DNA from: a virus
Taxonomy: Duplodnaviria; Caudoviricetes
Length of the DNA: 64,000 nt
Direction: 5' to 3' (one strand)
IMG/VR virus record: IMGVR_UViG_3300044676_005314
Coordinates: 7,807-71,806 of that record
The translations under genes and the position numbers were made by a program. The notes under the pieces were generated by a model. The model was given only the letters and a program-made list of their open reading frames with translations. It did no database searches and had not been told where the DNA came from. Below, in pieces: positions 449 to 22,843 of this stretch (the first letter of the stretch is position 1; every line of letters begins with the position of its first letter).

Positions 449-1369
449 ATGAAAACACAAACAACAAAATTAAGCAATAAGGATATAGTCAAGGATTTAT
501 CTGAAAAAATAGATGCATCCATTGATGAGTTGATTGCATCGGATGATTGGACTAAGTACCTATCTTTCGTAAAAGGTCAGCACCCATATTCTTGGAACAA
601 TACATTCCTTATACAATTTGAGGGTTGGGTTAGAGGTTTCAATCCTTCATATGTACGAGGAGCAAAGCAATGGAACGCTGTCAATAGAACTATCAAAAAA
701 GGGGAGAAAGCTATTTGGATTTTAGCACCTCGTTTTGGATATTCTTGTGCAGAAAAAGGATGCGTTGGAAGCAAAGCTGTTTGGAATAAAAATCTAAAGA
801 GAATGGTTTGTAATAAATCCCTATCACATAGAACTGAAAAACAATTATTTGGATTTATGGGCGTACCTGTTTTTGATATATCACAAACAGAGGGAGATGA
901 AATCTCTTTTATTACTCTTAAAGAAAAATGCGAGGGAGCTACAACTCAATTATGGGATGAGCTTATCGTAATGGCAGAGAGTAAAGGATTCAAAGTTGAA
1001 GTGGGCAACGCAAAAGGAGCCGATGGATTCTGCGACCCAAATAAAAAGGAGATTGTTATTGATAGTAATAGTTCCTTTGGGTATCAAGTAAAGACACTAG
1101 TCCACGAAATGGCTCATATGCTCTTACACGATGACTTGGATGCATATAGGCAAAATAGGGCTAGGTTTGAAACCGAAGCCGAAGGAGTTGCGTGGATAGT
1201 CTGTCAAGCACTTGGTGTCCATTCAGAAGGAGATAAATATTCTTTTGGGTATATCAAAAATTGGGGAGGCGATGATGCTAAGGCACTCGTTAAATCTTCC
1301 CTAGCTAGGATACAAAAGACAGCTACACAAATCCTTGATGAGATTGAAAACGATTTGGAGAGTTTGTAA
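449..1369 (+). CDS. ardC: ArdC-like antirestriction / ssDNA-binding protein with C-terminal HExxH metalloprotease-like domain
   Basis: N-term W..YL.F...HPYSWNN..LI.......V.G..QW....R.I.KGEKAIWILAP and F..V.VFDISQTEG; C-term TLVHEMAH..LH and ETEAEGVAWIVC..LG. Confidence 0.85.
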   Translation: MKTQTTKLSNKDIVKDLSEKIDASIDELIASDDWTKYLSFVKGQHPYSWNNTFLIQFEGWVRGFNPSYVRGAKQWNAVNRTIKKGEKAIWILAPRFGYSCAEKGCVGSKAVWNKNLKRMVCNKSLSHRTEKQLFGFMGVPVFDISQTEGDEISFITLKEKCEGATTQLWDELIVMAESKGFKVEVGNAKGADGFCDPNKKEIVIDSNSSFGYQVKTLVHEMAHMLLHDDLDAYRQNRARFETEAEGVAWIVCQALGVHSEGDKYSFGYIKNWGGDDAKALVKSSLARIQKTATQILDEIENDLESL

Positions 1370-1387
1370 AAAAATTCTCCAAAGAAC

Positions 1388-1416
1388 TTGACAAACTTAT
1401 ATGGATGTGGCATTAT
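1388..1416 (+). promoter_or_regulatory. sigma70-type promoter
   Basis: TTGACA-17-CATTAT with TGG. Confidence 0.8.
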
Positions 1417-1462
1417 TAAATTATAGGGAAAGAGATGCCCTAAGAATTCCATAGGAGGAAAA

Positions 1463-1753
1463 TTGGAAAACACAATAAAATTGGACAGTAGGCAAACACT
1501 TACTATCCTTGAGAGCTATTTGAAAGCAGGAGCAAGACTACACCACTTCAATGGAGCACAATGGTATATCGCTATTAGTGAGGACCTAGTTGCAATAATT
1601 GACAGTGGGAGAAGAGATGACTGCACTCTTGACTTCTTTACAGGAGACAAGGCTGTCAGCTATCTTGAGACAGGTAGCAACTGCCAAGAGGAGAACGCGT
1701 TTGAGGATTCGTTTGAAAGCTACAAGGAGCTAATTGTAGGAGTTTGCGTTTAA
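1463..1753 (+). CDS. hypothetical protein
   Basis: GGAGG RBS before TTG, own promoter. Confidence 0.7.
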   Translation: MENTIKLDSRQTLTILESYLKAGARLHHFNGAQWYIAISEDLVAIIDSGRRDDCTLDFFTGDKAVSYLETGSNCQEENAFEDSFESYKELIVGVCV

Positions 1754-1771
1754 TAAATATTGTCATAGAAC

Positions 1772-1800
1772 TTGACAAATGTTGAGTTGTATGGCAATAT
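1772..1800 (+). promoter_or_regulatory. sigma70-type promoter for an ORF-free region
   Basis: TTGACA-17-CAATAT with TGG. Confidence 0.8.
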
Positions 1801-1806
1801 GGATTA

Positions 1807-2235
1807 TAAGAGTTAGACAAAAGAAAGTAGGAAAGTAATTAAAAGGTTCCCTAAATCGCTAAGGTAAAACGGAACGCTAGGATACTTAGGGTGGGTAGCC
1901 CAAAAGGCCTTGTTAGTACAAATTAAAAAGCCATTGAAGCAAGTAGGAAGCAATAACTATCTGAAGCTATATAGAAACCATTTGGATGTGTCATCCGTGG
2001 GGAATGTAAGTCAGCAGTACTGATTTTATAGTGGTTAGACAAGTTACCGAAAGTGTAGAGTATGGGACTTAGTTAAAATTGTTAGGTCTGTATATAAAAC
2101 TTGGAGCAATTGATAAAAAAGTCTTAGGACTCGACCTTGTGGCGTTGCAGAAGCAAAGGACCTTTTAATTCTTTGTTACTTTAGATTTATAGGACAGCTG
2201 TGGATTTAGTTGCTTTCCCCACAGCAAAGTCCTTT
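1807..2235 (+). ncRNA. putative large structured ncRNA (RNA-A)
   Basis: own promoter, no ORF of 60 aa or more, closing helix AATTAAAAGGTTCC (about 1837-1850) / GGACCTTTTAATT (2157-2169), internal helices with G-U pairs valid on the plus strand. Confidence 0.55.
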
Positions 2236-2304
2236 ATCCAATCCAATCCAACGGAGTTTTAGGAGCAGGGGAGCCTATCGCTGTTTTTTGGAACTAAAAA
2301 TAAA

Positions 2305-2478
2305 TTAACCTAAAATATTAAAAGTTGCTAAGAAACAGCCTAAGAGGGTTAACGCATCTAGGTTAATTTGTAGAGCGATATCCATTTCTTTTAGCTTTGA
2401 GCCGTTAGTAATGGAGTTATCTACAAAGTACCATTTACTGTGGTAATTGCCCTTAACTCGGTATTGTGTTGCTTTCAT
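2305..2478 (-). CDS. 57-aa leaderless protein with hydrophobic C-terminus (MKATQYRVKG...LGCFLATFNILG)
   Basis: translated by hand; TTGACA(2513-2508)-17-GATAAT then 6 nt to ATG. Confidence 0.65.
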   Translation of the reverse strand: MKATQYRVKGNYHSKWYFVDNSITNGSKLKEMDIALQINLDALTLLGCFLATFNILG

Positions 2479-2550
2479 ATAAGTATTATCTCATCTTTCC
2501 TAATCTTTGTCAAGTCATATCCAAAAAAGATTTGGAGCCATAGGTTGGGG

Positions 2551-2973
2551 TTACCAACCTACGCTATACTCCTCGAACTCATCTTCGTAGAAGTCGCCTC
2601 CTAAGAAGAACCATTCTTCTTCTGTTAACAGTGTTTTGATAACGAAGATGTCCTTTAATTGGTCCTCTCTACTGAGTTGGTCGTAACCTACTCTCATAGA
2701 GTTATGACTTGCTCTCTTCTCGGGGGTGTAATCTATATCTATTGAATAGAATTCGCCACCGTCCTCAGCTAGAAGTTCCCAAACATATTCGAGGCAACTT
2801 ACCCAATAAGCGTGAACCCATTCAGCTAGCTCCTCTAGGTCTGAGGTGTGTTTTAAGCCCTCTCCTAGCCCTAATTGACTGAACTCGGTAGATAGTTTAG
2901 CCCACTTGATAGTCCTGTAGTCAGTGCCGTTTCCTTGGTTATCGGTCAACGGTCTTTGTGCTTTCGCTTTCAT
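2551..2973 (-). CDS. acidic hypothetical protein (start revised to MKAKAQ)
   Basis: open frame; conserved 21-nt motif ends 6 nt before this ATG. Confidence 0.65.
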   Translation of the reverse strand: MKAKAQRPLTDNQGNGTDYRTIKWAKLSTEFSQLGLGEGLKHTSDLEELAEWVHAYWVSCLEYVWELLAEDGGEFYSIDIDYTPEKRASHNSMRVGYDQLSREDQLKDIFVIKTLLTEEEWFFLGGDFYEDEFEEYSVGW

Positions 2974-3036
2974 ACTTATTACTAGTGGCAAGTTTTCCAA
3001 TATATCCTAAATATAGAAAAAAATCTTTTTTTTTAT

Positions 3037-3065
3037 TTGACATATATCCAATAATCTGTTATATT
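3037..3065 (+). promoter_or_regulatory. sigma70-type promoter
   Basis: TTGACA-17-TATATT. Confidence 0.75.
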
Positions 3066-3101
3066 TAAATTATAAAAGTTAAAAATTAGAAAAGGAATAT
3101 T

Positions 3102-3401
3102 ATGGAAATTATGGACGCAATTATGTTTCTACGCGAGTGGAACGATAAGGAAGCATTTGAAGCTACAGGAATGAGACCACACGAGTTCCAAAAGAAAATA
3201 GTTATGGAAGATATAGTCCAATCAGAGGAACACTTTCTTGGATACAAAGAAGCCCTTTACGACTTATCCCAATACTTTTTCTTTTTAAGAGGACCACTCC
3301 GTGAAAAAGAGTTAGAAATTAAGAAAAAAATTGAAGAACTTGGGAAGAATACCGTTGACCATTATGGTTATGACGGATATATGGACAAGCCGAAAGGATA
3401 A
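3102..3401 (+). CDS. hypothetical protein
   Basis: AAGGA RBS, own promoter. Confidence 0.75.
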   Translation: MEIMDAIMFLREWNDKEAFEATGMRPHEFQKKIVMEDIVQSEEHFLGYKEALYDLSQYFFFLRGPLREKELEIKKKIEELGKNTVDHYGYDGYMDKPKG

Positions 3402-3403
3402 TT

Positions 3404-3553
3404 ATGGAATACATTGTAGATATTGGAAGCTTCGAGATTGCAGAGGAAGAGAAGTCCTTTGTGGAGTCAATGGATGTTTATTCTCAAAGAGAATGGTTAA
3501 TCCAACAAATTCGAAGTGGATTTTGTGATATTGACCAAATAATTCCAAATTAA
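3404..3553 (+). CDS. 49-aa hypothetical protein (MEYIVDIGSF...)
   Basis: AAGGA RBS, starts 2 nt after the previous stop; replaces the track ORF 3331..3528. Confidence 0.6.
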   Translation: MEYIVDIGSFEIAEEEKSFVESMDVYSQREWLIQQIRSGFCDIDQIIPN

Positions 3554-3589
3554 CTTGACAAAGTTTTTAGGATGTGTTATATTTATATT

Positions 3590-3739
3590 ATGAAAGTTAA
3601 AAAATTCAAAGAAATTTTAGACCTCATAGAAGGGCATAACTGCGATGCAGATATGTGCTCCTTGATGTCTTATGAGTGGGCAGAACACTTCCAAGGGGCT
3701 AAGAGCCACCTAGAAGAGCTCCAAGCTTACTCTAGATAG
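3590..3739 (+). CDS. 49-aa leaderless protein (MKVKKFKEIL...)
   Basis: TTGACA(3555)-17-TATATT then 6 nt to ATG. Confidence 0.65.
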   Translation: MKVKKFKEILDLIEGHNCDADMCSLMSYEWAEHFQGAKSHLEELQAYSR

Positions 3740-4042
3740 ACTTGGTTCCTTACTGCAGTGGGCTAACCATCCATTGTAACGGCAGGGATATCGTAGGGAT
3801 ATCTGACGGCTACTAGGAGCAAGAAGGATTGGAAGAGGGTCCACGAAGAAAAAAATGGACCGGCAATAAGCGTGGGATGAAATTGAAGCCCACCTCCATT
3901 CCTGCATCCAACGGAAATAAAAAGGAACTTCGTTCCCTCCCTGTCCTTGCCTCCCCTCCAAGTCCTAAGAGTCCTATGGATATGGTGGAACAGGGGAGCC
4001 TCTGTCTTTAGGGAGTTTTATCTCTCTCATTGCTTATATTCC

Positions 4043-4071
4043 ATAATAACATTTCCTAGGGGAGTTGTCAA
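4043..4071 (-). promoter_or_regulatory. sigma70-type promoter
   Basis: TTGACA-17-TATTAT with TGT extension. Confidence 0.75.
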
Positions 4072-4094
4072 GGTAATTTAAAAGTTTTTTTTAT

Positions 4095-4325
4095 CGTCCA
4101 TAGGAAACAGGAAGAAATTACTTCCTTGGGCAGACCATAAAGGCTCCTTTATCTTTGTGCTACTCCTCGGGTTATTAAGTAGATTACAAGTTATGCGTTC
4201 GTTATCGCTCTACTCCCGAAACTTTCACACTCTGATTAAAGTGCCTTCCTGTCGGTCTGTTATAAAGTTGAGACCGAGAGTCCATTTATAAATCATCTCT
4301 CATTGTGGTGCGTTCTCAACCTTAT
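4095..4325 (-). ncRNA. putative structured ncRNA (RNA-C, about 230 nt)
   Basis: promoter TTGACA(4360-4355)-17-TATTAT; only ORFs under 30 aa; helices AAGGTTGAGA/TCTCAACTTT, TTCGGG/CCCGAG, AGGAAG/CTTCCT. Confidence 0.45.
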
Positions 4326-4379
4326 ATATCCATAATAACATATCCAATTTTATTTGTCAAGTTATTTTGAAACTTTTTT

Positions 4380-4787
4380 TATTTTTTTTTTGGAAGGCTA
4401 GGTGGTTAGGCTCTTGTGCTCCATTATTAATTTTATATTTGGAAGTTTCGTCCCATTCACAAGATTTAGTTATAACCCTCCACTCTAGCTTTCCATTGGT
4501 TAGACAAGGAGCCTGCTTGCAGACCTTATTGTCGGGTCCGATTCCTTGCCTTCCCAAATCTTCTTTCCTTTGTGTATTTAGAGAGGTGTGGACAGAGCCT
4601 TTCGACACTGCCACACGGACCACTATTGTGCATCTCTTAAGGTTGTTGCTTGAAGATGGGGCTCTAGCTAAAGACTTATTACAACCATTCTTCAAGCTGT
4701 CAAATAATTTTGCAACCTTAGTTTCTTAGTGTCATTGGTGGCCATCATTGCTTAGTGGCCGTTCTTCGCAAACCTATCAACTAAGAT
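4380..4787 (-). ncRNA. putative large structured ncRNA (RNA-B, about 400 nt)
   Basis: promoter TTGACA(4822-4817)-17-TATATT; GAAA-capped hairpin 4616-4586; helices that pair only on the minus strand via G-U. Confidence 0.55.
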
Positions 4788-5052
4788 ATAATAAATATAA
4801 CACAAAGCTTTCTATTTGTCAAGTATATTTATAATTTATTTTATACATTTTTTATACATTTATACACAAAATATACATTTTTTATACTTTCTCCAATTTA
4901 GCTCCAATGGCCTGTAGGAGGCTCTCCCTCAAGGCCTTCTTCATCCTCGAACCGTTAGGCCTAGACTTGACAAGTATGCCTTAAAATGTAAATATAAGCA
5001 TACTATATATAGTGGTGTTTTCCGACCAAATAAAAAAAACTTTGGAATTAAC

Positions 5053-5171
5053 TTGACAAACTCCGAACTCCTGCTAGAATGGAAGTAGAACTCCAATTGC
5101 TCCACAGGACTCCACTTTATAAAAAAAAATCTTAAAATTGACTTGACAAAAGGAATGGGGTATGGCAATAT
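5053..5171 (+). promoter_or_regulatory. two tandem sigma70-type promoters
   Basis: TTGACA(5053)-16-TAGAAT and TTGACA(5143)-17-CAATAT. Confidence 0.75.
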
Positions 5172-5199
5172 GGATGTATAAGCAACAGAAAGGTCAGCA

Positions 5200-5433
5200 A
5201 TGACATACATAAGCAAAGAACACGGCGACAAAAAAATTGTTGGAAGATACGAGGTGGAAATGCCTGCTCAAACTTTAGAGTGTAAAACTAGAGGAGAGGG
5301 ATGTTACTTACCGGGATATTTTAAATATCAAGAGGACGAACAAGGACGCAGATATCGTACCAAGTTCCACAGAGTAACAGCTCACACCGTATCAATGCCG
5401 ATTTTTGAGGGAGAATCTAGACCTATACTTTAG
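5200..5433 (+). CDS. small Cys/His protein, paralogue of 6262..6504
   Basis: AGAAAGG RBS; C-x6-C-x-LPGY...KFH-x2-T-x-HT shared with 6262. Confidence 0.75.
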   Translation: MTYISKEHGDKKIVGRYEVEMPAQTLECKTRGEGCYLPGYFKYQEDEQGRRYRTKFHRVTAHTVSMPIFEGESRPIL

Positions 5434-5605
5434 GTTTAGATTTCCACAGGACAGGAAGGGAGACCAAGTGGATGTAAAAATTTATTCCACGGAGGATGGC
5501 TTGTTCATCCAAACCGAGGAAATCTAACAGGACTTGACGATAGGAAATTCGGGGAAAACCCCGAGTTCCTGTATTCCCTCCAAGAAAAAAAATCCTAAAA
5601 AGTCC

Positions 5606-5634
5606 TTGACAAATTCCTTGTCTCCTGTTATAAT
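5606..5634 (+). promoter_or_regulatory. consensus sigma70 promoter with no ORF downstream
   Basis: TTGACA-17-TATAAT, TG extension. Confidence 0.75.
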
Positions 5635-5777
5635 GGAGTTAGAAAAAATAAATAAAAAAAAATAATCTCCCCTGCTCGAGTTTATCCGGAGTGTTGGAAG
5701 AGGACCCTAATGAAGGTTCCGGAGTTTTTGGAGCTCTCTAAATGCGCCTCCAATGGATTTTTTGGCATTTTGTGGAT

Positions 5778-5793
5778 TAGAACATTTGTTCTA
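5778..5793. promoter_or_regulatory. LexA (SOS/Cheo)-like palindrome
   Basis: TAGAAC-ATTT-GTTCTA fits the Gram-positive GAAC-N4-GTTC box. Confidence 0.5.
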
Positions 5794-5795
5794 TT

Positions 5796-5811
5796 TGTGA
5801 AATTTTTCACA
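5796..5811. promoter_or_regulatory. CRP/GlxR-like palindrome
   Basis: TGTGA-AATTTT-TCACA, exact TGTGA-N6-TCACA. Confidence 0.5.
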
Positions 5812-5838
5812 ATCTATATATGGTAATTTTTACCAAAA

Positions 5839-5868
5839 AATTAGAGGGTTATTTCTAGCCCTCTAATT
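5839..5868. terminator. hairpin at the 3' end of minus-strand gene 5855
   Basis: AATTAGAGGG / CCCTCTAATT 10-bp stem. Confidence 0.55.
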
Positions 5869-6010
5869 CTATTAATTCAGCTATAAACATTTCACATTCT
5901 AAATATTCACATATAAAGAAATCAGAAATTTCTGTAACAGCTCGTCTGTCGCAACTATCGCAAAAATTCATTTTGCCCCCTTTCATCTTTTTAGTTTTAT
6001 TTTCTTTCAT
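5855..6010 (-). CDS. small Cys-rich protein (start 6010 or 5971)
   Basis: CDSC...CEYLEC; conserved upstream motif 6 nt before ATG 6010; AAGGGGG before ATG 5971. Confidence 0.55.
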   Translation of the reverse strand: MKENKTKKMKGGKMNFCDSCDRRAVTEISDFFICEYLECEMFIAELIELEG

Positions 6011-6261
6011 ATAAAGTACTAGTGACAAGTTTTTCAAAATCATAGATTTTTACAGAAATATTTTAATTAGAATAGTTTCTAACCTAACTCTAGAAATGAA
6101 AGTCTTAAGCACTTTTAGAGGTAAAATCAGCAAAGTTTTTTTTGGTCAAAATGGTCAATATCTGAAATAGTCAATGTTTATGGGCTTTTATGGGTAAATA
6201 TTTTTTCTGTTTTTCTAACATTTAAGTTGATTAGTGTCTTCTTTTTAGTACACTTAATCTT

Positions 6262-6504
6262 ATGAAAACAACAAAAACAGAAAGAGATACAAAAATGAAT
6301 ACCATAATTAAAGACGGCGTAGAATACTTAGTAGAAGAAATCGGCTCAATGACTGTACCGTGTACAGCTAAGGGTTTCTGTACACTACCGGGTTATTCTA
6401 AAAAAAGACTAATTAAAAGAGAAGATGGTAGCTTCGATGAAAAAGTTAAAAAGTTTCATAAGCTAACACCACACACACTATATACAAAGATAGAGAAAGG
6501 TTAA
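6262..6504 (+). CDS. small Cys/His protein, leaderless, paralogue of 5200..5433
   Basis: TTGATT-16-TACACT, 7 nt to ATG; shared motif. Confidence 0.75.
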   Translation: MKTTKTERDTKMNTIIKDGVEYLVEEIGSMTVPCTAKGFCTLPGYSKKRLIKREDGSFDEKVKKFHKLTPHTLYTKIEKG

Positions 6505-6520
6505 ATAGAAAGGTTAATAA

Positions 6521-6545
6521 AACCCCTAGAAATAGGGGTTTTTTT
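6521..6545 (+). terminator. intrinsic terminator
   Basis: ACCCCTA-GAAA-TAGGGGT followed by T run; near-identical to 12809. Confidence 0.75.
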
Positions 6546-6560
6546 GAAAGGTAAAACATT

Positions 6561-6866
6561 ATGAAAAATTATAAAGACTTAAACACAGAAATATCACTCA
6601 ATATAGAAAATAGAATATTTGAAAATCTTAACAATGGCGAAGACTTTTTTACTGAAGTTTATAACTTATTAAATTCAATAGGGGTAACCGTTGAAGACTT
6701 AGACATTGCTGGGTTAGATTTTATTCTAAACGTAGAATTTGGCGTTAACATTACAGTTAATGAAGAAGAAGAAAACTACGATAATTTTTCGCCACGCTTA
6801 GCTAGATTTATAATAAGCGCGTTAGATTTAGGGTATAGAAGATTTTTAGAAAATAAGAAAGGTTAA
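6561..6866 (+). CDS. hypothetical protein
   Basis: GAAAGG RBS, open frame. Confidence 0.7.
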   Translation: MKNYKDLNTEISLNIENRIFENLNNGEDFFTEVYNLLNSIGVTVEDLDIAGLDFILNVEFGVNITVNEEEENYDNFSPRLARFIISALDLGYRRFLENKKG

Positions 6867-7424: not shown

Positions 7425-7826
7425 ATGACAAAAGAAAATGGTAGGCCTTCAAAGCTAACAGCTGAAGTGATAGAGAACATTCAAAATTGGTTACGAATGG
7501 GTTTTTTCGTTGAAGATGCTGCTCGTATGGCTGGTATTCACAAATCAACCCTTTACCGTTGGTTAGAAAAAGGTAGAGAAGATAGAGATAACGAAATAGA
7601 GTCTTTATATGCTGACTTTTGCGACGCTATGGAGAAATCTAGAGCAGAAGCTGAGGGTATGTATCTCAATTCAATCAAGACTGCTGCAAGCCGTGGGCAA
7701 TGGCAAGCTGCTGCTTGGTGGCTAGAGAGAAGCTTTGATAAGTGGTCAAAACCAAACAAAGTTCAATTATCGGGTTCAGATGAAGAACCTGTCAAAATTA
7801 AGATTAAATACTCTGGCGACAAATAA
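7425..7826 (+). CDS. terS: terminase small subunit
   Basis: GRPSKLT...G.FVEDAARMAGIHKSTLYRWL.KG helix-turn-helix, then F.DAMEKSRAEAE and WQAAAWWLER. Confidence 0.75.
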   Translation: MTKENGRPSKLTAEVIENIQNWLRMGFFVEDAARMAGIHKSTLYRWLEKGREDRDNEIESLYADFCDAMEKSRAEAEGMYLNSIKTAASRGQWQAAAWWLERSFDKWSKPNKVQLSGSDEEPVKIKIKYSGDK

Positions 7827-9995: not shown

Positions 9996-10375
9996 GCGAT
10001 AATCTTATTACATAGTAGTAAGGTTATGCAGGACAGTGCGCCTGTGGAAAATGATTCGATGGGAAGGTATTGGTTTGGACACTTGTACTATTCATTTGGG
10101 AGCAATACCCAACACAGGCACTAGGGAATCGGAAATATAACTAAATTTGTTTATGTACGGATTTAAATACTAAATGTAGTGTATTAGTAAAAGTTATAAT
10201 TAGATTCCCTTATTTTTACCCTCACACATTATTTAGATAATGATGAATAAGTATTAGTTAGTGAGGTGAAACGGCGAGCAATTGAGAGGGTATAATGGAA
10301 ATGTCGGTGGATAACTAGCAATAGTTGTCCCTTTGCCGATACCCTCCCATCGTCGGCTCTCTTAGGAGAGCCGTA
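9996..10375 (+). ncRNA. putative large structured ncRNA (RNA-E, about 380 nt)
   Basis: TTGACT(9961)-17-TAAAAT; at least six helices, including GGATAACTA-GCAA-TAGTTGTCC and a terminal CGGCTCTC/GAGAGCCG. Confidence 0.6.
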
Positions 10376-10411
10376 TCTAAAATGACTTTACAAAATTTTT
10401 TTTACTTTGAC

Positions 10412-10440
10412 TTGACAAACTAAATATACTATGGCATACT
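10412..10440 (+). promoter_or_regulatory. sigma70-type promoter
   Basis: TTGACA-17-CATACT with TGG. Confidence 0.8.
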
Positions 10441-10474
10441 TAATATATAACGATTAGAAAGGTAGGTATAACCT

Positions 10475-21948: not shown

Positions 21949-22054
21949 AAAGGCCTCCTTTGCTACACACTATAAGTATAGCAGATTTTGACTAAATGTA
22001 AAAAAAAACGAAAAAAACTTGACATTTTTTAAAAATTATGGCATTATTGGTGTA

Positions 22055-22843
22055 ATGATGATAAAGGAGGATATATTGAATATCAATATAGACAACAAGG
22101 TTATGGACACAAAACCCACAATAGAACAAGCAGAGTTCTTATTTAAGAGGTTTCCTAATAAACCATTGCGTGAATGGGCTGAAGATTGGGGTGTTTCACA
22201 CGAACAAGTAAGGATTATGAAGATTAGATTAGGAATTCCTACTAGTCGTAAAGTGGAATATTCACTAGAAGTAGCTCAACCTGTAATAGATTTTATTGCA
22301 GAGGGTAGAGGTACTCTTAATACAACTCGTACATTTGCTGGAAGAAAATTCGGCAAAACTACTTTTTTTAATTGGATGGCAGAATATCCGGAGTTAAAAG
22401 ATGCTGTTATGAATGCTTTAGAAGAAGCAAGACATAACAAATTAAACCCAACTCATAAAGTATGTTCTCAAACCGGTAAAAGATTGCCTGTCTCAGAATT
22501 TTATAAAGACAGTAATACTTTAGATGGTTATTCAAGTAGAAGTAAAGAAGCAGTAAAAGCTAATGCTAAAAAGTATTATGAAGCTAGAAATGTTCCTGCT
22601 CCTACAGTAGAGGAAAAAGTATGCCCTGCTGTTTCAGATTTAGGACCACTTCCTGCAAAATATTTTGGACTAAGTTCAAAGCATTCAACAGGATTGCAAA
22701 CATACTGCAAAGAGTTTCAAAAACAATATCAGAGACTCTTGAATCAAGGTGAGGTATCAGAAGGCGAAGCTTACGATTTAGCTAAAGAACCAACATACTT
22801 GTATTTCGAAGACGAAGGATTTTTACCAAGAATTACTAATTAA
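22055..22843 (+). CDS. putative DNA-binding protein (two HTH-like segments plus degenerate zinc-finger-like repeats)
   Basis: LREWAEDWGVSHEQVR; KTTFFNW...PEL; TTGACA(22019)-17-CATTAT promoter; start 22055 or TTG 22076. Confidence 0.6.
   Translation: MMIKEDILNINIDNKVMDTKPTIEQAEFLFKRFPNKPLREWAEDWGVSHEQVRIMKIRLGIPTSRKVEYSLEVAQPVIDFIAEGRGTLNTTRTFAGRKFGKTTFFNWMAEYPELKDAVMNALEEARHNKLNPTHKVCSQTGKRLPVSEFYKDSNTLDGYSSRSKEAVKANAKKYYEARNVPAPTVEEKVCPAVSDLGPLPAKYFGLSSKHSTGLQTYCKEFQKQYQRLLNQGEVSEGEAYDLAKEPTYLYFEDEGFLPRITN

Follow-up and report, generated by a model that had tools for sequence, protein, structure and literature searches.

The early region of a phage is commonly interpreted as a row of small uncharacterised proteins, and the question raised by the locus described here is whether a slot of about 400 nt in such a region holds a protein gene at all or, as an initial annotation of the DNA had proposed, an RNA read from the minus strand (4380-4787), hereafter RNA-B. 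The locus belongs to a 71.8-kb phage record of IMG/VR, of which bases 7807-71806 were analysed; this 64-kb stretch is referred to as the window. The window codes for TerS, TerL, a head-tail adaptor, an endolysin and an ArdC-like protein, and its TerL is at most 27.5% identical to that of any deposited phage. RNA-B lies inside an ORF-poor region of approximately 6 kb, which extends from the ArdC-like gene (449-1369), comprising an ArdC N-terminal domain and a region with a zincin metallopeptidase motif (Pfam ArdcN, DUF6782 and Peptidase_M78; PHROG ‘anti-restriction protein’), to the small terminase gene at 7425. In this region a sigma-70 scan returned 27 promoter-like sites, distributed over both strands, compared to 15.3 ± 4.5 in shuffled sequences.

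Some further elements of the surroundings are reported here for completeness. The ArdC-like gene is the opening gene of an RNA-rich region. An 81-nt tag-less tmRNA-like element was found about 0.5 kb ahead of the window (G000:C1:7213-7293, plus strand, equal to L048:1501-1581), with a second copy in one of the relatives introduced below (L036:3895-3975, minus strand). This element scores 44.9 and 43.4 bits against the tmRNA model (gathering score 47), of which it matches both ends, and has an acceptor stem with G3-U70 and a T-arm, while the tag-coding region is missing, as in a ‘tRNA-like domain only’ mini-tmRNA; it was not called by ARAGORN on L036. A 274-aa protein matching Lar-like restriction-alleviation and endonuclease VII/HNH PHROGs is encoded at 22019-22843, within the structural gene block.

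Relatives of RNA-B were collected in two ways. A 20-mer from its invariant part, searched against metagenome contigs, led to L036, L037, L038 and L040, while three other matches (L034, L035 and L039) were discarded as chance hits in high-GC coding DNA. Translated ORFs of the region, searched against a protein collection, returned six gene-caller fragments, and the contigs carrying them provided L041-L047. Eight distinct variants were obtained, i.e., the window and seven others, from contigs of at least seven other samples that include two Tara scaffolds; in public sequencing runs, near-identical DNA was found in estuarine, riverine and soil-labelled metagenomes. The general alignment (A2) holds nine copies and the alignment used for covariation of the core holds eight sequences, from which a covariance model of the core (R1) of 160 positions and 40 pairs was built.

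Two overlapping ORFs cover the locus, one on the minus strand (4357-4695) and one on the plus strand (4367-4729). In favour of a protein gene, both frames are open in the window (112 and 120 codons), a 90-nt deletion with a 3-nt insert found in some relatives changes the length by a multiple of three, and pieces of these frames have been called by gene callers on some contigs. The initial annotation had nevertheless described the two ORFs as not protein-like and named the conservation of ORF 4357-4695 as the observation that would speak against an RNA; both this ORF and its antisense partner turned out to be broken or frameshifted in the relatives. The sense frame (121 codons) is divided between two frames in L038, and in L036 no piece longer than 41 codons is left; the antisense frame changes frame midway in L038 and is interrupted in L036. 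Insertions and deletions of 1, 2, 13 and 74 nt occur within the ORF span, and in neither frame do the 68 variable columns show a significant excess of third-position changes (12/18/23 and 18/12/25; chi-square p = 0.18 and 0.10). Neither product has a Pfam or PHROG match, and the exact products are absent from a collection of 15 billion proteins; searches with shorter ORF products also found none. The start codons are TTG and, according to the first inspection of the sequence, are not preceded by a ribosome-binding site. A 20-codon ORF (MVWEDKESDPTIRSASRLLV) over module m3 (see below), open in six variants, was rejected as well: its AUG is missing in the window, L036 and L043, and it is frameshifted in L043.

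What the relatives do keep is a series of folded modules behind a promoter. Read along the minus strand, the features of the locus are the following.

4794-4822, minus strand: promoter P_B, with TTGACA, a spacer of 17 nt and TG-n-TATATT (scan score 11/12, with an extended -10 TG).
4724-4786, minus strand: m1, the 5' hairpin domain, with a closing helix from transcript base 2 and an inner GGCCAC/UGGCC hairpin.
4639-4720, minus strand: V1, a variable hairpin domain of 82 nt, a single closed domain in the minimum-energy fold.
4581-4636, minus strand: m2, a three-way junction of the core, formed by P1, a short CAC/GUG arm and a 12-bp GAAA hairpin (4616-4586).
4558-4580, minus strand: an A-rich single-stranded linker, 25-35 nt long in the relatives, with a semi-conserved motif near GAAAGAU.
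4496-4557, minus strand: m3, the most conserved part of the core, in which UUGG/CCAA and P3 enclose two small hairpins.
4392-4495, minus strand: the optional 3' module, with a long closing helix of UGGAA-GCUAG-GUGG and CCAC-CUAGC-UUCCA.
4332-4391, minus strand: an A-tract (4374-4391) and the next promoter (4360-4332), which drives ‘RNA-C’.
3919-3941, minus strand: a terminator-like hairpin with a U-run, found by scan, the first downstream of P_B on the minus strand.

The fold of the minus strand at 4380-4787 has a predicted energy of -118.5 kcal/mol (z = -4.98, with none of 100 shuffles as good), compared to a z of -1.82 for the plus strand; in the shortest variant (L044) the z is only -1.43, so this thermodynamic signal is not general. 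The comparison of the variants is based on only eight distinct sequences of one narrow phage lineage, with significance taken from shuffles. In the core, 99.0% of the cells of the 40 pairs are paired over the eight sequences, and six pairs show changes on both sides, against 1.2 ± 0.9 in shuffled alignments (0 of 500 as many). As a control, sliding the partner strand by one to three columns lowered pairing to 38-48%. These double changes are attributed to four different sequences and several of them are single events; they involve the window once (P1), L043 twice (GAAA hairpin) and L036 three times (P3). P1 carries one change from A-U to G-C, the GAAA hairpin two double and three one-sided changes, and P3 three pairs with double changes and one pair seen as G-U, A-U and G-C. 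Outside the core, all cells of the 16 pairs of m1 are paired, with double changes at two pairs, and the closing helices shared by V2 and V3, two domains that replace V1 in some relatives, differ by two adjacent double changes (GGAAGG/CCUUCU versus GGAGAG/UUCUCU). Altogether, compensatory changes were found in five helices across the eight variants.

The same helices indicate the strand. In the minus sense they contain 20 G-U cells and three mismatches over the eight variants, whereas in the plus sense one G-U cell and 22 mismatches would be present, and the RNA strand is therefore the minus strand, as had been argued from the wobble pairs of the single copy.

The five helices initially listed are all present in the sequence at their given places. 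Comparison with the relatives separated the GAAA hairpin and one other helix, which are kept, from three that are perfect in this copy only. The hairpin at 4616-4586 had been written without three unpaired bases and reads in full GUGUGG-CAG-u-GUC-GAAA-GGC-u-CUG-u-CCACAC; this 31-mer is unique in the window, and none would be expected by chance. The remaining four are listed below.

4551-4544 / 4509-4502, minus strand: AGGCAAGG/CCUUGUCU, the 8-9 bp helix P3, supported by the relatives.
4540-4535 / 4525-4520, minus strand: CGGACC/GGUCUG, not conserved.
4562-4555 / 4468-4461, minus strand: AAGAUUUG/UAAAUCUU, not conserved.
4554-4548 / 4398-4392, minus strand: GGAAGGC/GCCUUCC, not conserved.

A C-to-A change in three variants affects CGGACC/GGUCUG, and the helix is broken in L043; the alternative pairing of UCG/CGA and GUCUG/CAGGC fits all cells except two of L043. 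For both AAGAUUUG/UAAAUCUU and the long-range GGAAGGC/GCCUUCC pairing to the 3' end, the relatives either carry an uncompensated change or have no 3' partner. Moreover, GGAAGGC overlaps the covarying helix P3, so that the two cannot form together.

With these helices in place, the architecture of RNA-B can be described module by module. In m1, a four-pair helix between the loop and an upstream stretch (UUGC with GCAA) keeps pairing through a change from U-A to A-U in two sequences and is regarded as a candidate pseudoknot, resting on one event. The base of m2, P1, is GAGA/UCUC in the window and GGGA/UCCC in relatives, and the short arm bears an extra hairpin in five variants, with UUUG, GCAA or UUCG as its loop. 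The letters GAAA of the main hairpin are kept in all variants, including L043, in which the inner stem is different. The two small hairpins of m3 are UCG-GACC-CGA and GUCUG-CAAG-CAGGC, and the unpaired stretches GGAAU and CAAUAA of this module are invariant.

In alignment A2, m2, the A-rich linker and m3 are present in all variants, and the other parts come and go. Positions 4635-4724 of the window are replaced by 3 nt in L038, L040, L041 and DNA run X14. The slot of V1 is taken by an unrelated domain, V2, in L042, L044 and L036 and by V3 in L043, L047 and L045; in L045, m1 is also replaced by a V1-like hairpin. L036 carries a self-contained hairpin of 74 nt inserted between the linker and m3. 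The 3' module is of the window type in L038, L041, L042 and L043 (with one change from G-U to A-U in L038 and a weakened helix in L043), is different in L045, and is lacking in L044, L047 and L036. Mean pairwise identity follows the same partition, with 0.92 for m3, 0.87 for m2, 0.82 for the linker (which also varies in length), 0.70 for the 3' module and 0.56 for the middle domain. In the flanking protein genes, amino-acid identity is 70-94%; with 92% nucleotide identity in m3, the RNA core is at least as constrained as its protein neighbours. Hairpin domains were deleted, inserted or swapped exactly at helix boundaries and, to judge from these alignments, RNA-B is a mosaic of an invariant core and exchangeable peripheral hairpin domains.

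Upstream of the modules, P_B is a near-consensus sigma-70 promoter of the extended -10 type, whose -35 and -10 hexamers are preserved throughout the nine fetched copies, in contrast to a variable spacer. Transcription is expected to start at about 4787, where an A is the seventh base after the -10 element, in agreement with the start in the initial annotation, and the transcript is helical from base 2 onward. The last helix closes at 4392, which defines a unit of 396 nt (4787 to 4392, minus strand). No U-run terminator was detected by the terminator scan between RNA-B and RNA-C, whose promoter lies downstream of RNA-B in eight of nine copies. RNA-B opens a tandem series of three ORF-less units, each with a promoter, a third minus-strand promoter being located at 4071-4043. 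The first hairpin with a U-run is found only at 3941-3919, indicating that the 3' end of RNA-B is not set by an intrinsic terminator; RNA-B may therefore be part of a longer transcript, and any read-through from P_B would probably end at this hairpin.

Evidence of expression was found in two assembled metatranscriptome contigs from two studies, which lie wholly inside RNA-B and, as assemblies, show neither strand, ends nor level. One, of 346 nt, is identical to 4419-4763, and the other, of 371 nt, covers 4401-4771 with a middle part of 146 nt reported as ‘same length, diverged’. Both RNA contigs are without loose ends, while the DNA contigs run on, a weak hint of a discrete RNA. The flanks of RNA-B had no cover in RNA runs X15 and X16, but no weight is given to this, given that contigs do not rank expression.

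Several observations concern the sequences next to RNA-B. RNA-C (4145-4233, minus strand) contains a 45-nt core (4171-4215) whose identity is 95.6% in L012 and 90.6% in L009 and which can be recognised in L004, L006 and L007, phages whose coding regions are only about 70% identical; the core is also present in a metatranscriptome contig (X16), and RNA-C is far more widespread than RNA-B. The stretch 4320-4413, which contains the promoter and A-tract, reached a summed contig depth of 310-520 in a riverine run (X10), compared to about 3.5 for its flanks. Its loose ends run into many different contigs, which points to a repeated cassette common to many phages, and the stretch matches Fusobacterium phages Fnu1, FNU2 and FNU3 over 57 nt, at 84.5%. 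Finally, ‘RNA-A’ (plus strand, 2032-2043) holds UGGUUAGACAAG, a perfect 12-nt complement of CUUGUCUAACCA in RNA-B (4496-4507), that is, of the 3' strand of P3 plus CCAA; this complementarity was dropped as a candidate interaction, since chance alone would give 12-mer matches in such numbers.

RNA-B shows what is expected of a structured non-coding RNA (ncRNA) gene, namely its own promoter, compensatory pairs in its homologues and no conserved reading frame. The RNA of about 400 nt initially proposed has thus gained a promoter, compensatory changes, strand-specific wobble pairs and two RNA contigs, and 4787 to 4392 is very probably a real minus-strand ncRNA gene. As for its identity, the covariance-model search of Rfam suggested at the outset returned no family: Rfam 15 at gathering thresholds had no match in the window and nothing relevant up to E = 10 over 1300-6700, and four variant contigs and the L042 unit in isolation gave no match either. 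The models of GOLLD (RF01998) and ROOL (RF03087) matched neither the window nor the variants, and a full-text literature search for motifs of the RNA-B core found no paper.

The distribution of RNA-B is narrow. R1 detected exactly one copy per RNA-B contig (130-201 bits) and none elsewhere in the window, in 32 related loci or in five full related phage records. Likewise, the body of RNA-B gave no blastn match in 32 loci taken from phages with a related TerS or ArdC, and it is absent from deposited phages, a search of phage GenBank entries having matched only 57 nt of the neighbouring promoter region. Scans of viral contigs with four core motifs and of genome contigs with two motifs also gave no match and hence neither a prophage copy nor the name of a host; in a protein atlas, the endolysin led to no host taxon. 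The divergent promoter region that lies to the right of RNA-B is also present in L006 and L007, whose corresponding slot (L006:6263-7166, same in L007) contains a weaker minus-strand promoter and four small ATG ORFs of 41-109 aa. Given that RNA-B is confined to its own contigs and that small ORFs fill the slot in L006 and L007, it can be regarded as an accessory cassette of a narrow lineage. In contrast, window positions 10097-10462 (‘RNA-E’ of the initial annotation) are 68-79% conserved in nine related phage loci (L003, L004, L006, L008, L009, L010, L012, L013 and L015) and belong to the shared backbone.

With regard to function, the best overall explanation, which we rate at about an even chance, is that of a structured ncRNA gene acting in trans by binding protein, as a decoy or scaffold; this mode of action taken by itself, given that the RNA is real, is put slightly below even. 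According to this proposal, host RNA polymerase would transcribe RNA-B early and abundantly from the sigma-70 extended -10 promoter, and the RNA would accumulate as a stable molecule owing to its base-paired 5' end. The functional unit would be the invariant core (the GAAA junction of m2, the A-rich linker, and the m3 junction with its invariant unpaired bases), the 5' hairpin, middle domain and 3' module being exchangeable ornaments. The junction loops of the core would bind a host or phage protein in a sequence-specific manner, and RNA-B would serve as protein decoy or scaffold during host takeover.

Several findings favour action in trans. The unpaired letters of the junctions are where conservation peaks, and this points to a protein that recognises them or to a tertiary contact. 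Neither an ORF further along the minus strand nor a gene on the opposite strand is present. Complementarity to the rest of the phage does not stand out either, with 34 matches of 11 nt, compared to 19.9 ± 6.6 in shuffles, and a longest match of 13 nt. Moreover, the periphery is dispensable. The neighbourhood, with its ArdC-like gene and tag-less tmRNA-like RNA, fits a host-takeover island. One specific protein-binding candidate was rejected: among GGA motifs of the CsrA type, the best (ACAAGGA) has its GG paired in the covarying helix P3.

A tertiary contact could also be made between RNA molecules. RNA-B may be an RNA-only homo-oligomer, as are ROOL, GOLLD and OLE, with the GAAA tetraloop and the junction loops as intermolecular contacts, an option that we consider unlikely. 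It would explain the retention of GAAA above a stem that changes, and the layout of a conserved core plus variable parts resembles that of GOLLD (PMC12286853); as a lead only, the 11-nt GAAA receptor is half-matched at the base of P1, by UAUGG or by CCUAAG, two pieces that no variant combines. On the other hand, RNA-B, at 300-430 nt, is much smaller than ROOL or GOLLD and does not match their Rfam models, no tRNA genes are nearby (ARAGORN called none in the 64-kb window or in six variant contigs), and a conserved self-complementary loop was not found.

The position of RNA-B directly at its promoter, the lack of a terminator of its own, and the presence of two more minus-strand units followed by one terminator-like hairpin that faces plus-strand genes are what a cis-acting transcription element would show. 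Such an element would exert processive antitermination, as put or EAR do, or control read-through from P_B; polymerases reading through would pass the next two units and the terminator at 3919 and continue, antisense, into the convergent genes at 3102-3739. However, put and EAR are far smaller or unrelated and no Rfam match was obtained; each downstream unit has its own strong promoter, so that read-through is not needed for its expression; and L036 combines an unchanged core with a different downstream unit. This explanation, too, has little likelihood in our view.

The A- or purine-rich single-stranded linker, which is kept in all variants, together with the strong promoter would suit a base-pairing regulator or sponge, in which linker or junction loops bind Hfq or base-pair with an mRNA or sRNA of the host. 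Yet conservation within the core is lower in the linker (0.82 identity and variable length), complementarity within the phage does not stand out from shuffles, and 400 nt of conserved structure is far more than a seed-pairing sRNA needs; we see only a slim chance for such a role.

A replication primer or origin transcript, similar to ColE1 RNA II or to the R-loops of T4 oriF/oriG, would be a structured pre-primer that forms a persistent hybrid, and the strong promoter, the long structured RNA ending in a homopolymer tract and the lack of a polymerase, primase or helicase among about 40 scanned proteins are in line with it; it is nevertheless very improbable, as close relatives lack RNA-B and have small protein genes in its slot, while an origin should not be dispensable, and as whole modules are optional, including the 3' end. 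The protein-coding reading is refuted by the comparison with the relatives presented above and keeps almost no probability.

Returning to the trans-acting, protein-binding explanation, a bolder version can be formulated, although it is speculative and rather improbable in its full extent: RNA-B would be an RNA effector of host takeover or counter-defence, the core of which traps a host protein while the peripheral modules are shuffled in an arms race, and which would form, with the tmRNA-like and neighbouring RNAs, an accessory island in place of small early proteins. If the protein decoy proves true, RNA-B would represent a new kind of RNA-based tool for host takeover or anti-defence. Irrespective of this, a slot of the kind usually filled on paper by small proteins is here occupied by a well-supported structured RNA, and the exchange of hairpin domains around a two-junction core among near-identical phages amounts to domain shuffling at the RNA level. 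The core, of about 140 nt and with clear module borders, is small enough for SHAPE, pull-down and cryo-EM.

Among known phage RNAs, the pRNA of phi29 is a structured RNA encoded by the phage, expressed from a strong early promoter and located a few kb from the packaging genes. RNA-B is likewise structured, has a strong promoter and lies a few kb from packaging genes, but it has no Rfam match, its phage packages DNA by a TerS/TerL terminase, and close relatives with the same terminase lack RNA-B. ColE1 RNA II, HK022 put and EAR are promoter-proximal structured RNAs that act where they are made; RNA-B has no sequence or structure match to them, is dispensable in relatives, and has an optional 3' part.

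The closest parallels are of a more general nature. GOLLD and ROOL occur in phages and prophages, and RNA-B is likewise phage-borne, highly structured and presumably abundant. GOLLD has a universal 3' region and a 5' region that is conserved to a lesser degree (PMC12286853), and RNA-B also combines a conserved with a variable region; however, RNA-B measures 300-430 nt, compared to about 600-800 nt or more for GOLLD and ROOL, and is not next to tRNA genes, while tRNA islands are their usual neighbours. The long ncRNAs of the lytic Kayvirus phages (phage K, vB_SauM-515A1) show substantial expression and are of unknown function (PMC10383478). They are RNAs of Staphylococcus phages, known from RNA-seq and encoded next to tRNA genes, whereas RNA-B comes from an unrelated estuarine phage and is documented only by comparative evidence and contigs. 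Fremin, Bhatt and Kyrpides (2023) reported 10,006 candidate structured RNAs of IMG/VR phages (PMC10690425); these are covariation-supported intergenic motifs of the same kind and from the same database as RNA-B, which may be among them. With RNA-B, the small set of large phage RNAs of unknown function gains a defined family: it is a new family, absent from Rfam, within the structured phage ncRNAs such as GOLLD, ROOL and the Kayvirus lncRNAs.
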